Positions 3,880-8,726 of a DNA stretch of 64,000 nt are shown piece after piece. The stretch is from assembly GCA_965223505.1 (NCBI GenBank), contig CBDCWP010000042.1, positions 1-64,000 on the forward strand. The letters run 5' to 3'. The first letter of the stretch is position 1. The number at the start of each line of letters is the position of its first letter. Source of the DNA: Planctomycetota bacterium (GTDB lineage Bacteria > Planctomycetota > PLA2 > JAEUHO01). The translations under genes were made by a program, and so were the position numbers. The notes beneath the pieces were generated by a model. That model did no database searches. It saw only the letters and a program-made list of their open reading frames with translations, and was not told the origin of the DNA.

Positions 3880-4566
3880 ATGTCCGAGGTCGTACCCGCA
3901 CTGCGCATCCGAGACCTGAAGCGCACATTCAAGCATCCCGAAGGCGGGCGCCTCACGGCGATCGACCTCCCCCACCTCGACGTGGCGGCGGGCGAAGCGC
4001 TCGCGCTGCAGGGGGAGAGCGGCAGCGGGAAGACGACGCTGCTTCACTGCATCGCGGGCATCCTTCCGGTCGACAGCGGGACCATCGAGATCGCCGGCGA
4101 GCCCATGAGCGGTCGTTCCGAGACCGTCCGCGACCGCCTGCGCGCGAAGCACATCGGCTATCTGTTCCAGACATTCAACCTGTTGCAGGGACTCAGCGCG
4201 AAGGAGAACGTCGAGCTGGGCATGACGTTCCGTCCGCGCGGCGGCGAAGCGCCCAAGAAAGCCGCCGAGCAGGCCCTCGAACGCGTCGGTCTCGCCGACC
4301 GCATGAACCACCGGCCTTCGCAGCTCTCCGTCGGTCAGCAGCAGCGCGTCGCGATCGCCCGGGCGCTCGCCGGCCACCCCGCGTTGGTGCTCGCCGACGA
4401 GCCGACGTCGAACCTGGACCGCGCGCGAGCCGACCAGTGCCTCGAGCTTCTGCTCACCTTCGCGCGGGAAACGGGCGCCGCGCTCCTCATGGTCAGCCAC
4501 GACGAGACGGCGCTTCAACGCTTCGAGCGGCGCGAGACGCTGCGCGCGCCGGAGGCGGTCCGGTGA
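3880..4566 (+). CDS. ABC transporter ATP-binding protein (LolD/MacB-like)
   Basis: Walker A GESGSGKT, signature LSVGQQQRVAIARAL, Walker B LADEPT, SHD. Confidence 0.93.
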   Translation: MSEVVPALRIRDLKRTFKHPEGGRLTAIDLPHLDVAAGEALALQGESGSGKTTLLHCIAGILPVDSGTIEIAGEPMSGRSETVRDRLRAKHIGYLFQTFNLLQGLSAKENVELGMTFRPRGGEAPKKAAEQALERVGLADRMNHRPSQLSVGQQQRVAIARALAGHPALVLADEPTSNLDRARADQCLELLLTFARETGAALLMVSHDETALQRFERRETLRAPEAVR

Positions 4567-5813
4567 ACGTGCTTTCCCTCGCTTGGCGAAGCGTCCGTCA
4601 GCGGCCGCTGTCGAGCGTCCTGACGGCGGTGTCCGTCGCGCTCGGCGTCGCCCTCACGATCGGCGTGCTGCAGATTCGCGAGGCCGCGCGGGACTCGTAC
4701 GCCAAGGTCGCGCAGGGCTACGACGTGATCCTCGGTCCGACCCACGGCTCGCCGCTCACCATCGTGCTCAACACGATGTTCCACATCGGGGACGCGAAGG
4801 GCACGGTGCCCTGGGAGATCTACGAGGCGGCGCAGGCGGACGAGCGCGTCGCCCGCGCCGTGCCCTACGCGGTCGGGGACACGTTCCGCACCCATCACGT
4901 GGTCGGCACCTCGGAGGAGCTCTTCACGACGCTCACCGATCGCGATCAGACACCCCTGGGCGCCGAGATCCGCGGCCGCATGTTCCATCCGAAGCGCTTC
5001 GAGGCCGTCGTCGGGAGCATCACGGCCGGCACCAACGGGTTGCGGCTCGGCGACGAGTTCTTCCCGAGCCACGGGCTGACGCCGGGCGGCAAGGAGCACA
5101 CGCAGGATCCGTTCGTGGTGGTCGGCGTGCTGCGCCCCACGGGCACGCCCGCGGACCGGGCGATCTTCATTCCGATCGCGATGTTCTACGAGATCGAGGA
5201 TCACAAGAAGGCCACGGACATCCTGCGCAAGCAGCGCGGTGACGACGACCTCGAGGACCACCGGATCCAGGGGCTCTCCGCCGTCGGCATCAAGCTGCAC
5301 GTGCCCTATCAGCGCTACGAATACCTGGCGGAATTCCGGCGCGGTCGCGCGCAGGCGCAGGCGGCGATTCCGGTCAACGAGGTCGGCGAGCTGATGCGTC
5401 TCGTGGAGAAGATCGACGTCGTCTTCGAGCTGATCGCGTACCTCGTCGTGCTCGTCGCCGCGGTCGGCATCCTCGTGAGCCTGTACAACACCATTCAGGG
5501 ACGCCGGCGTGAGATCGCGATCCTGCGCGCGCTGGGCGCGCGCCCGCACCACGTCTTCACGGTCATCGTCCTGGAGTCGCTGCTGATCTGCATGCTCGGG
5601 GGCCTCTTGGGGCTGTTGGTCGGCCACGGCGCGATGGTGGCCACGGCGCCCACGTTGGTCGAGCGGTACGGCGTCGTCGTGTCCGGCGGTTTCCAGTTGC
5701 TCGATCTTCAGATCATGATCGCACTGGCCGTCGTCGGCGTCGCCGCCGGCGTGCTGCCCGCGTGGCGCGGATTGCGCACACCGGTCGCCGAGAACCTCCA
5801 CCCGCAAGATTGA
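4563..5813 (+). CDS. ABC transporter permease (MacB/FtsX type)
   Basis: GTG overlaps upstream stop; N-terminal TM, periplasmic domain, RRREIAILRALGA motif, three C-terminal TMs. Confidence 0.9.
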   Translation: MNVLSLAWRSVRQRPLSSVLTAVSVALGVALTIGVLQIREAARDSYAKVAQGYDVILGPTHGSPLTIVLNTMFHIGDAKGTVPWEIYEAAQADERVARAVPYAVGDTFRTHHVVGTSEELFTTLTDRDQTPLGAEIRGRMFHPKRFEAVVGSITAGTNGLRLGDEFFPSHGLTPGGKEHTQDPFVVVGVLRPTGTPADRAIFIPIAMFYEIEDHKKATDILRKQRGDDDLEDHRIQGLSAVGIKLHVPYQRYEYLAEFRRGRAQAQAAIPVNEVGELMRLVEKIDVVFELIAYLVVLVAAVGILVSLYNTIQGRRREIAILRALGARPHHVFTVIVLESLLICMLGGLLGLLVGHGAMVATAPTLVERYGVVVSGGFQLLDLQIMIALAVVGVAAGVLPAWRGLRTPVAENLHPQD

Positions 5814-6457
5814 TGTCGCAGCTCGAACACTTCGCCGTCTGGACCCTGGGCGTCTTGATCGCCGGCGGCGTCGCCTGGTCCATCCACGTGTCGGACCGGC
5901 CCATGGGGGACGCGGCGCGCGACGCCCGGACGTTCACCGCGCGCGGCGTCCTGGGTCATGGCGACCCGCTACGCGCGAACATCGACCCGCTGCTGCCCCC
6001 CGGACTGCCCGGCGGCGTGCGCATCGACCCGGAGACGGGCTACATGGTCGGCATCGCCCTGCCGCCGGATCCCGACTATCGGGACCTCGACTGGACCGCG
6101 CTCGACGACGAGAACCTGGCCACGTCGGTGCCCGCCGAGATCCAGGCGCTCCACAACGAGCCCGTCCGCATGACGGGGTTCTTGCAAGCGTTGTACGACG
6201 TGTCGGATCTGCGCACGTTTCTGCTCGTGGGCAACCACTTCTCCTGCTGCTTCGGCCGGTTTCCAGGGCTCGGCGGCCTGGTCGAGGTGACGCTCGGCGT
6301 CGACCAGCCCGATGCCGACATGACGTTCGCGCCGATCGTCGTGCGCGGCAGGCTGCGCATCGAGCCGCTGCGCGTCAATCCCCGCGACGCCAAAAGCCGG
6401 GTGGTCTTGCTGTTTCACCTCGACGACGCGAGGGTTTCGACCCTCGACGGCGACTAG
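5813..6457 (+). CDS. DUF3299-like membrane-anchored protein (copy 1)
   Basis: TGATG coupling; N-terminal TM; VRMTGFL...FLLVGNHFSCCFG...PIVVRGRL pattern; context next to ABC genes. Confidence 0.7.
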   Translation: MSQLEHFAVWTLGVLIAGGVAWSIHVSDRPMGDAARDARTFTARGVLGHGDPLRANIDPLLPPGLPGGVRIDPETGYMVGIALPPDPDYRDLDWTALDDENLATSVPAEIQALHNEPVRMTGFLQALYDVSDLRTFLLVGNHFSCCFGRFPGLGGLVEVTLGVDQPDADMTFAPIVVRGRLRIEPLRVNPRDAKSRVVLLFHLDDARVSTLDGD

Positions 6458-6474
6458 GCACTAGGATGGGTTGC

Positions 6475-7116
6475 ATGAACGTCTGGGACCGCATCACGAT
6501 CCTGATCGGCTCGGTGATCCTGGCTGTCGGACTGTACGCCGGCGCCGCGGTGTCGGCGGAGAGCAAGGCGACCGTGCGTGACGCTCAGACCTTCACGGCC
6601 GTCGGCGTCGCGGGCCTCGCATCGGCGCCGCGCACGGTGGACGGAAACCTGATCGAACCGGTCGCGGTGCGTCTCCCCGCGGGCGTTCGCGTCGATCCCT
6701 CGACGGGCCTGCTCGTCGGCGTACGCCTGAAGGGCGACAAGGACACCACGCCCGCTCCCTGGGAGCTCTTCCGGTCGTACGACTACCAGAAGGGTCTCGA
6801 GGGGATGCCGGAGTCGATTCGCGACCTGCACGAGAAGAAGGTCGTGATGCTGGGCTTTTTGTGGGCGATCTACGAACCGGACGACATTCGCCGCTTCGGC
6901 CTCGTCGGCAGCCATTGGTCCTGCTGCTACGGCGTACCGCCCGGTTTGAGCGACGTCGTCATGGTCGAGCTCAAGGAGGGCGAAGACGGGCTGTCGCAGA
7001 CGCTCAACCCGATCCGCGTCGTCGGCACGCTGCACATCCGTGAGGAGAAGCAGGGCGGATTCACGACCGCGATCTATCACATGACCGATGCCGTCGTGCA
7101 AGTGCTCGAGTACTAG
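6475..7116 (+). CDS. DUF3299-like membrane-anchored protein (copy 2, paralog)
   Basis: VVMLGFL...FGLVGSHWSCCYG...PIRVVGTL; shares RDAxTFTAxGV and LPxGVRxDPxTG with copy 1; TAGGAT 7 nt before ATG 6475. Confidence 0.72.
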   Translation: MNVWDRITILIGSVILAVGLYAGAAVSAESKATVRDAQTFTAVGVAGLASAPRTVDGNLIEPVAVRLPAGVRVDPSTGLLVGVRLKGDKDTTPAPWELFRSYDYQKGLEGMPESIRDLHEKKVVMLGFLWAIYEPDDIRRFGLVGSHWSCCYGVPPGLSDVVMVELKEGEDGLSQTLNPIRVVGTLHIREEKQGGFTTAIYHMTDAVVQVLEY

Positions 7117-7119
7117 GGT

Positions 7120-7153
7120 GGGCGCCAACGGCGCCCGCCGCCAAACTGGCGGC
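7120..7153. terminator. Two adjacent hairpins between convergent genes
   Basis: GGGCGCC-AAC-GGCGCCC (7120-7136) and GCCGCCA-AAC-TGGCGGC (7137-7153). Confidence 0.5.
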
Positions 7154-8109
7154 TAACCGTCCGACTTGGGACGGCGCTTGACGGGTCACCCGGGTCCCGG
7201 CGTCTCCGCCTTCGGAACGGCCTTCCCGGCACGGACCGCGGCGATCGCGTCGAGCAACCAGTTCTCGCGCTCGTCGTCTTCCATCATCTCGTTGGGGTCG
7301 TTGTCGAGACTCCCGCGGAAGCGCAGCTTGCGGTCCGCATCGAGCACGAAGAAGTGCGGGGTGCGCTTGCCACCCAGCACGTCCGTCATCTGCTGCTCGC
7401 GATCCGGGATGATCCGCGTATGGAACCCGAGGCCGTCGATGAACGCCTGGTAGTGCTCCTCGGTGTCGCGGTAGTTGCAGGCGACCGCGAACAACCGCGC
7501 CTTCGAGGCCGCGAGCTTCGCGTTGATCGACTCGTTGAGCTTCTTCGACGTCGGGCAGTTGGGCGACCAGCACATCAAGACGACCGGCGCATCGCCGGCC
7601 GCGACGATCCAGTCGACGACGTCCGAGAGCGTCTCGAGGTCGGCCGCGCTCTCTTCGTTCGCCTGCAGGCCGTAGAACGAACCGGCCTTCGCCACGAACT
7701 CGCCCTTCATCATGGTGTCCAGCTCGCCGTCCTCCTGGACGTTCGCCAGAGCGGCGATCGCCGTGTCGAGCGTGGCGTCGTCCGGCGCACCCCAGGTCTT
7801 CGCGAGCGCCATGACGGACGCTTCCGCATCCGCCTTCGTGATGGCGAGCTTGCTGAGCTGAAAGGGCTTCCCGTCGACGTCGGTCGCGGCAAGGTCCGGG
7901 ACCTGTTCGCCGATGGCCACCGGACCGCTCGGCGCCGGTTCCGGCTTCGGATCGTCGTGGGGTTCATCCGCCGGCGGCGCATCCGCGGGCGGCGTGTCGG
8001 CCGGCGGCTTGTCGGCGGGCTCAGCGCCGCCGTCTTCGTCCTGTCCGCATCCGGCGAACGAGAACGCGGCGACCGCGAGGAAGAGAATCCAGAATCGACG
8101 ATCGGGCAT
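7153..8109 (-). CDS. Redoxin (AhpC/TSA-like, thioredoxin-fold) lipoprotein; probable selenoprotein with UGA at 7188-7186 read as Sec308; ACP-like insertion
   Basis: Lipobox FAGC; IGEQVPDL..TDVDGKPFQLS; WSPNCP; RTPHFFVLD..LRFRGSLDN; C-terminus ETPGPG-UGA-PVKRRPKSDG-UAG matches the family G-C-x-(I/V)-K motif. Without readthrough the gene is 7186..8109. Confidence 0.8.
7157..7174 (-). promoter_or_regulatory. Candidate bacterial SECIS hairpin
   Basis: On the mRNA: UGA + 11 nt + CCGUCC-CAAGUC-GGACGG. Confidence 0.6.
7960..8019 (-). repeat. Degenerate 15-bp tandem repeat encoding a (PADxP)x4 linker
   Basis: PADKP PADTP PADAP PADEP just after the lipoprotein cysteine. Confidence 0.7.
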
Positions 8110-8215: not shown

Positions 8216-8635
8216 CTAGGCGGCGTCGTCGACCAGCGCGCTGCCGGCCACGCGAATCCGACGTGGGCTCAGCCCCCACCGCAGCGTCCGGCCACGCGGC
8301 GTCTCGACCTCGCCGCAGCCGTCGAGCTCGACGACGAAATGTCCGTTCACGGCGATCGTGACCGGGCCGTCGCGGCACTCGATCTTCAGATCCTCGCCGT
8401 CGACGACGAGACGGCCTTCCGCATTGGAGAGGATCGCCTCGGTCGCGGTGACGTGACGCGGCGTGCCGCGTCCGCTGAATTGAAAGCCGTCGGTCCGGCC
8501 GCGTCGGACGAAGACCTGTCCGCGTCCTTCCAGGTCGATGACGACCTCGCCGGCGCCGCGCAGGCGTACGAAGCCGAAGCCGCGCAGGAGGTGCGGGCGG
8601 CTGAGAATGGGAGTGCTTTCGGTCGGTTGGTTCAT
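8216..8635 (-). CDS. Hypothetical beta-rich protein with internal repeat
   Basis: ORF with good codon bias; repeated motifs (VIDLEGRGQV / VVELDGCGEV). Start could also be 8668. Confidence 0.55.
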   Translation of the reverse strand: MNQPTESTPILSRPHLLRGFGFVRLRGAGEVVIDLEGRGQVFVRRGRTDGFQFSGRGTPRHVTATEAILSNAEGRLVVDGEDLKIECRDGPVTIAVNGHFVVELDGCGEVETPRGRTLRWGLSPRRIRVAGSALVDDAA

Positions 8636-8726
8636 GGCTGGCTCGCAATGCGCGCCGACTTCCACCATGGTCCTGTACCCGATGCCTATGCCCCGGTCGC
8701 GCGATCCGGACAGATGAGCACGGAAC

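Follow-up and report, generated by a model that had tools for sequence, protein, structure and literature searches.

In a 64,000-nucleotide stretch of DNA from a member of the Planctomycetota (positions 1 to 64,000 of contig CBDCWP010000042.1, all of which is referred to here as the window), we identified a gene for a thioredoxin-fold selenoprotein in which an 84-residue segment is very likely a nested domain that derives from an acyl carrier protein (ACP) and no longer works as a carrier. Both folds are known, and what is new is their combination, a serine-less carrier-protein domain nested in the thioredoxin fold of a protein predicted to be exported. Taken as a whole, the explanation that we consider the best, and a probable one, is that of a nested, ACP-derived, non-carrier domain that may provide a docking surface. 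Carrier proteins are cytoplasmic shuttles whose function depends on one modified serine, and the gene appears to be a natural case in which an exported redox selenoprotein took up such a fold, which then went without the serine and was still conserved across a bacterial family for another use; it would also represent a rare nested-domain event within the thioredoxin fold. Neither an ACP-like domain in a thioredoxin fold nor an exported serine-less ACP domain was found in the literature searched; the preliminary description of this DNA, made from the sequence alone, had likewise known of no description of the architecture, and no curated family model in Pfam or NCBIfam covers the redoxin together with the insert.

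Positions 7153 to 8109 of the reverse strand form a single frame of 318 residues if TGA is read as selenocysteine (Sec), with U308 as the only recoded codon (Table 1). Pfam matches to AhpC-TSA (35.5 bits; cut-off, 26) and Redoxin (29.7 bits; cut-off, 26.6) both fall on residues 173 to 273 only. The closest solved structures by sequence (phmmer) are 2ywi_A (E value, 3.1e-8), 2cvb_A (1.4e-7), and 3u5r_E (2.4e-6), and the same three are found by fold when the full model is searched with Foldseek, 2cvb being first (E value, 2.2e-10; target TM score, 0.73) and 3u5r and 2ywi next. C185 is invariant, within the motif W-S-P-x-C-P, in the 21 family members of alignment A2; it occupies the first position of a CxxC motif, here C-P-T-S, the second position of which is mostly Ser, Val, or Ala, with Cys in some of the 21 members. 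The redox centre would be C185, with the Sec of a C-terminal G-U-x-[VI]-K-R motif as its partner. From two features of the N terminus, a hydrophobic segment and a lipobox-like F-A-G-C, the protein is predicted to be extracytoplasmic; a hydrophobic N terminus is present at the start of all homologues compared, and matches to lipoprotein-signal models are weak (LptM_cons, E value of 0.27; PG1828_fam_lipo, E value of 0.017). The linker that follows is missing from most homologues, leaving a gap in alignment A2. The full model has pLDDT values of 39 to 52 by block over residues 21 to 60, with runs below 50 at residues 1 to 35 and 51 to 53, and places the hairpin strands at residues 74 to 76 and 82 to 84 and beta1 at residues 176 to 181.

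Table 1. Positions in the window of the selenoprotein gene and its parts
Feature	Positions	Strand	Basis or remark
Whole gene, 318-aa thioredoxin-fold selenoprotein, predicted to be exported; stop TAG at 7153-7155	7153..8109	-	ORF with TGA read as U; AhpC-TSA and Redoxin matches
Predicted signal peptide, residues 1-21, with lipobox-like F-A-G-C	8047..8109	-	Read from the sequence
Pro/Ala/Asp-rich linker, residues 22-60	7930..8046	-	Low pLDDT; gap in alignment A2
N-terminal beta-hairpin of the redoxin fold, residues 61-88	7846..7929	-	Model strands; alignment to 2ywi
ACP-like four-helix insert, residues 89-172	7594..7845	-	Fold and sequence homology to carrier proteins
T132 codon, equivalent to the pantetheine Ser	7714..7716	-	Starts helix II in the model; placed on the Ser of the genome's ACP by hhalign
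Core of the thioredoxin fold, residues 173-307; C185 (codon 7555-7557) is invariant within W-S-P-x-C-P	7189..7593	-	
In-frame TGA, Sec (U308)	7186..7188	-	Aligned with Cys of relatives
Basic tail after Sec, residues 309-318	7156..7185	-	mRNA hairpin at 7156-7175, candidate SECIS

The premise that the in-frame TGA is read as Sec holds, and the gene encodes a selenoprotein. U308 aligns with the Cys of the C-terminal G-C-x-I-K-W in 2ywi and 2cvb (phmmer). TGA stands in this column in 12 of 13 relatives from the same taxonomic family, the thirteenth (L084) having Cys, as do P0027 and many insert-less relatives; x-[VI]-K-R is kept after the codon in all 12 TGA-bearing relatives and is followed by a basic tail. 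The motif G-[UC]-x-[VI]-[KR]-R is present at 13 of 13 loci of family f1, and no family that carries it is listed in the accessible part of a review of selenoproteins (PMC13188914). The genome encodes SelB (335.7 bits; cut-off, 242.25), SelA (507.2 bits; cut-off, 267.9), and a tRNA-Sec (69.2 bits; gathering score, 47). The RNA of positions 7110 to 7200 (reverse strand) folds with a free energy of -49.4 kcal/mol (z score, -3.22) and a 7-bp stem with the loop CAAGUC; the hairpin in the mRNA of this gene starts 11 nt past the UGA, and relatives have hairpins past the UGA as well, with no single common shape. A whole selenoprotein family is truncated at its Sec codon in public gene calls, which stop at the Gly before the TGA in seven of seven homologues in one set and in nearly all of those in a second.

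The insert lies in frame with the gene; the hairpin segment before it ends in ...GKPFQLSKL, and it is followed by the segment of beta1, ...PVVLMCWSPNCP. In 2ywi, the hairpin (chain residues 15 to 52) directly abuts the beta1 region (phmmer), and insert-less relatives, which come from the same phylum and from metagenomes, have a short loop between hairpin and beta1; one of them (L087) is insert-less, yet has the Sec form. With Foldseek, the full model aligns to 2cvb, 3u5r, and 2ywi over 261 to 266 columns, although the targets have only 183 to 190 residues, so that some 75 to 80 additional columns are required. Because hairpin and beta1 are contiguous or short-looped in proteins that lack the insert, and because of the extra columns, we interpret the segment as a true domain insertion into an existing architecture, and the translation, the 2ywi alignment, and the insert-less relatives together bear out the earlier observation that about 84 residues separate segments that are nearly contiguous in ordinary redoxins. 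The ACP-derived domain is thus nested where the N-terminal beta-hairpin of the redoxin, predicted to be exported, would otherwise be joined to beta1 by a loop.

In the full model, the insert consists of helices at residues 92 to 105, 132 to 144, 152 to 156, and 161 to 170, with pLDDT values of 89 to 98 by block over the insert and both junctions and an overall pTM of 0.76. When the insert was modelled alone, with an alignment of 20 homologues, the same helices I and II, short helix III, and helix IV were obtained at high confidence (pLDDT, 94.5; pTM, 0.86), which argues for an autonomous domain. The first of these helices is the ACP helix-1-like segment that had been noticed ahead of the aligned stretch, and the confident four-helix model of the insert alone, together with a profile that reaches solved ACPs (see below), supports the ACP-like fold that had been proposed; profile and structure searches had been named beforehand as able to refute such a fold, and both yielded it. 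Thirty of the 50 structural matches listed are titled as acyl or peptidyl carrier proteins or PP-binding domains, with fatty-acid-synthase ACPs at the head; the remaining 20 come from complex I, mitoribosomes, megasynthases, and other assemblies of this sort, under titles that leave the chain unnamed. The expectation that Foldseek would return a four-helix ACP bundle was thus borne out as to the entries retrieved, which are carrier proteins or chains of large assemblies with TM scores of up to 0.75/0.80, but not as to significance, since the insert has no Foldseek match at an E value of 0.001 or below, the best being 0.055.

Descent from carrier proteins is argued mainly by profiles. The 21-member family profile (alignment A2), searched against the PDB, reached 2n50_A at an E value of 1.7e-5, with profile positions 66 to 140 aligned to residues 4 to 77 of a chain of 79, followed by 2lol_A (1.8e-4) and some 20 more ACP entries at 0.004 to 0.02. 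Thirteen insert sequences, drawn from DNA references and aligned on their own (A4), were compared with the ACP encoded by the same genome (L101, which adjoins fabF), and hhalign aligned the two over 42 columns with 21% identity (E value, 5e-4; probability, 31.7%), placing T132 on the Ser of D-S-L and bringing into register both the Asp that precedes helix II and the signature of helix IV; the ACP-like alignment drawn by eye in the preliminary description was in this way reproduced. When the source genome was searched in six frames with the A4 profile, the top non-self match was the ACP gene beside fabF (E value, 0.41). Across 401 genomes, at an E value of 0.001 or below per genome, the same profile found 13 family f1 genomes and six places elsewhere, and all six are small open reading frames with D-S that match PF00550 at E values of 8e-16 to 5e-11, against roughly 0.4 false matches expected over the 401 genomes at this threshold. 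We regard this reciprocal result, six of six, as the strongest evidence that these sequences offer for carrier-protein descent over convergence. That the likeness is convergent, and the insert just a small bundle of helices with no kinship to carrier proteins, is very improbable, given the identity of the out-of-family matches, the end-to-end coverage of PDB ACPs, and the in-register alignment to the ACP of the same genome at the helix IV signature and at the Asp ahead of helix II.

Single-sequence and curated-model searches were less responsive. The preliminary description had directed attention to PF00550 for residues 89 to 172, and this was not borne out, in that the model does not match the insert of the window at an E value of 10 or below, nor any of 13 members at 1 or below; a scan of the source genome with PF00550 at an E value of 0.01 or below found two other places, the insert not being among them. 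NCBIfam ACP models match a few members at E values of 1.6e-4 to 6e-3; on the insert of the window they give at most 19 bits against cut-offs of 66 to 84, NF002150 (cut-off, 66) reaching 19 bits at an E value of 0.0012. BLASTP gave no alignment of the insert with the genome's own ACP at an E value of 100 or below. In a single-sequence search of the PDB, ACPs appeared at E values of 0.0095 to 0.08, below armadillo and death-domain entries; designed armadillo-repeat proteins and the p75 death domain were rejected as relatives and are read as composition or repeat noise, because no single stretch was significant alone. Among 1.84 billion representative proteins the insert had 21 matches, most of them to the same family; P0017 (DUF7507 repeats) and P0023 (nematode allergen repeats) were discarded as summed-repeat noise, and because of such noise in the same search no weight was given to a tandem PP-binding protein (P0025; E value, 5.3e-5). 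PF00550 clusters are also present among the ESM-Atlas neighbours of the insert (score, 0.90), an observation that we treat as a lead only.

Of the carrier-protein core, the insert retains the Asp that caps helix II and, in helix IV, the T-x-x-D-x-x-x-W-I signature; the phosphopantetheine-bearing Ser is gone. The DS motif of carrier proteins had been read as DT at T132, and the hhalign comparison agrees, since it puts this residue, the first of helix II in the full model, on the pantetheine Ser of the genome's own ACP. In the survey of homologues at this site, which had been posed as a matter of Ser versus Thr, the column holds T5 A8 E6 P5 D4 S2 K2 G1 in 33 sequences (the 21 of A2 and 12 from genome loci, some of which nearly duplicate members of A2); a hydroxyl residue is thus present in only 7 of 33, while the preceding Asp is kept in 28. 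A modification site would tolerate no Ala, Pro, Lys, or Gly, and the variability of the column therefore indicates that the domain is not a carrier, in line with the earlier suggestion that it is probably non-pantetheinylated; having lost the Ser that bears phosphopantetheine, the insert would be unable to act as one.

The role of the insert may be docking or recognition, an assignment that we make tentatively and hold to be somewhat less than probable. We suggest that the insert would offer a rigid surface on which a substrate or redox partner docks, as a non-catalytic accessory that stands outside the chemistry. Rigid attachment to the redoxin core is suggested by the model, in which confidence at the junctions is high and pTM reaches 0.76 despite some 60 disordered N-terminal residues. 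The chemistry would stay with C185 and U308, which probably cycle via a selenenylsulfide, if the C-terminal Cys of 2ywi is taken as a guide; 2ywi is one of a group of modelling templates whose C-terminal Cys is described as a "resolving cysteine" in the accessible part of PMC3091736. Mean pairwise identity within the insert is highest in helix IV (0.46) and the helix I-II loop (0.40) and lowest in helix II (0.27), and the last of these values counts against a docking role. In true ACPs, helix II is the one that serves recognition. Across sequences, the insert carries a net charge anywhere from -15 to +1, and the C-terminal tail is always basic (+2 to +8); a uniform acidic docking face is therefore absent, and an acidic insert serving as an electrostatic dock for the basic tail was rejected as a general rule.

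The distribution and constraint of the insert bear on the reading that ranks next, in which it has neither ligand nor partner and is a structural add-on, such as a cover that protects the selenenylsulfide, a surface for oligomerisation, or a membrane spacer, fixed in one lineage after a chance insertion. Among 401 genomes of the phylum, insert-containing matches were confined to family f1 (13 of 16 genomes, in addition to the source genome), 12 of them strong and the thirteenth (G201) only a short remnant; outside f1 the matches were to the core only, mostly with Cys. This narrow distribution would suit an add-on, as would the shortened inserts beside an intact core in P0010 and L084, the concentration of the most conserved insert columns at carrier-protein core positions rather than on the surface, and the rigid packing suggested by the junction confidence and pTM of the model. 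Against it, mean pairwise identity is 0.37 in the insert versus 0.44 in the core, and the insert is kept in relatives down to about 35 to 40% overall identity, which speaks for a role that has been maintained; the long loop that links helices I and II, moreover, is as conserved as helix I. To judge from these identities, the insert is under purifying selection, nearly at the level of the catalytic core. We consider the add-on unlikely, although it fares better than the readings below.

A more far-reaching proposal is that the cofactor-less ACP module is a binding device in its own right, either an acyl pocket that aims the selenenylsulfide at lipid hydroperoxides or lipidated envelope proteins or a dock where the basic Sec tail or a basic partner would rest in the course of the redox cycle. 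We rate it as speculative, a little below the add-on; were it true, it would provide the first demonstration that a carrier-protein fold can function extracytoplasmically and with no pantetheine. Its narrower form, a ligand pocket in which an acyl chain or hydrophobic group is held non-covalently and lipid hydroperoxides or lipidated substrates are presented to the Cys/Sec pair, is more doubtful again. Fatty-acid-synthase ACPs, which bury acyl chains between helices II, III, and IV, are the entries that head the structural list, the host is peroxiredoxin-like and has its Sec at the column of the resolving Cys described for 2ywi, and the insert is conserved, all of which would favour such a pocket. 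True ACPs, however, tether the chain through pantetheine on the Ser that is lost here, no lipid enzymes are encoded among the neighbouring genes, and we know of no carrier-protein fold that binds free lipid without a pantetheine tether. Least credible of all is a working carrier that bears its modification on T132 or a residue close by and transports a group within the periplasm: T132 coincides exactly with the position of the Ser, the preceding Asp is mostly kept, and one relative (L078) has D-S, but most sequences have Ala, Pro, Glu, Asp, Lys, or Gly at the site, and the protein bears an export signal whereas phosphopantetheinyl transferases are cytoplasmic.

Returning to the preferred reading, a nested non-carrier domain of ACP descent, the insert can be set beside several known systems. 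It resembles acyl and peptidyl carrier proteins (PF00550; e.g., 3ce7, 2n50, and 6lvt) in its four-helix topology with a long helix I-II loop and short helix III, in the Asp that caps helix II and the T-x-x-D-x-x-x-aromatic-I of helix IV, in its length of about 80 to 90 residues, and in detectable profile homology. It differs from them in the absence of the conserved Ser, and hence of a pantetheine arm, in scoring below every curated family threshold, in its poorly conserved helix II, and in being, as predicted, exported and nested in another domain, whereas carrier proteins are free-standing or lie between megasynthase domains. The host is closest in sequence and fold to 2ywi (Geobacillus), 2cvb and 2ywo (Thermus), and 3u5r (Sinorhizobium), which we take to be the PRX_like1 group of CDD and which share with it one conserved Cys at the first CxxC position and a C-terminal G-C-x-I-K whose Cys aligns with U308; these proteins have no insert, hairpin and beta1 being contiguous, and have Cys in place of Sec. 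The forms with and without the insert would therefore offer an experimental handle on uncharacterised Cys/Sec redoxins of this kind.

For the way in which the insert may work, the nearest analogy is DsbA, an exported thiol-disulfide protein in which a helical domain is nested in the thioredoxin fold after beta3 and serves substrate binding; here, the insertion lies before beta1, and the inserted fold and its origin differ. The ACP subunits of complex I and the mitoribosome and the MmpL5-AcpM assembly, all of which have entries among the structural matches listed, offer a further analogy, in that a carrier-protein fold may be employed to bind proteins instead of shuttling a group. In these subunits, the Ser is known to be retained, along with an acyl-pantetheine that mediates binding, whereas the modification site is lost in the insert.

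A search with a family alignment (A1) found one genome locus (L001), where this gene translates to the same protein as at a family f1 locus (L076), and 67 metagenome loci, and only one of the latter (L002) spans the insert. The gene is convergent with an operon for a MacB-like ABC transporter and two DUF3299 proteins and is preceded by an RlmI-like methyltransferase gene and a 150-aa open reading frame of no known family; NCBIfam models assigned no family to the neighbouring open reading frames. The order recurs in many f1 genomes, which are so closely related that their shared synteny counts only weakly toward a functional link. A DUF3299 gene is adjacent at 8 of 13 loci, and the small open reading frame stands beside the gene at 5 of the 13 f1 loci as well as at the metagenome locus that spans the insert.

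Public gene calls shorten the ORFs of this selenoprotein family at the Sec codon, both in the window and among the database proteins P0003 to P0031. All seven homologues returned by one homologue search have as their last residue the Gly that precedes the TGA, and the same Gly forms the protein end in 13 of the 15 family members among the matches listed, the other two being P0018, which is a fragment, and P0027, which has Cys in place of Sec. Because the public calls stop at the Sec codon, the databases lack the conserved x-[VI]-K-R tail. The 425-residue homologue P0013 matches the family to about residue 190; the remainder is unrelated and rich in Arg and Ala, which probably reflects a frameshift or a chimeric assembly.

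In relatives from other families of the phylum that lack the ACP-like insert, the alignment column of U308 is mostly occupied by Cys, yet one such insert-less locus, L087 (G024:C221), carries TGA at this column, followed by A-V-K-R. In the wider family, exchange between the Sec and Cys forms is thus not tied to the presence of the insert.

Just 3' of the gene, the hairpin GUCCG-CGUGA-CGGAC recurs at four homologous loci (L072, L074, L076, and L080), with variants at L075 and L078, and may be part of a SECIS element or a terminator. A second in-frame UGA lies within the hairpin loop at L072, L076, and L078, where it seems to be the true stop.

The neighboring features are listed in the table. 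In both paralogous exported proteins of the convergent operon, two vicinal Cys residues occur in the motif S-C-C-[YF]-G, and only the second protein matches Pfam DUF3299; relatives of DUF3299 flank the selenoprotein gene at 8 of the 13 family loci. A redox link involving the operon and the selenoprotein gene is possible. The upstream ORF matched no family in Pfam or NCBIfam, and relatives of it were found upstream of the selenoprotein gene at L072 to L076 and at the metagenome locus L002.

Features at and around the selenoprotein gene (window coordinates)
Feature	Position	Strand	Arrangement
ABC ATPase, MacB/FtsX-type permease, and two paralogous exported proteins (operon)	3880-7116	+	Convergent with the selenoprotein gene
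Selenoprotein ORF as shortened at the Sec codon	7186-8109	-	
150-aa ORF	8216-8668	-	Immediately upstream of the selenoprotein gene, same strand, 106-bp gap

The protein search with the insert also returned P0025, a 502-residue tandem PP-binding protein in which the attachment motif of every repeat reads G-I-D-T rather than G-I-D-S; like the insert, it has a carrier-like domain with Thr replacing Ser at the attachment position.
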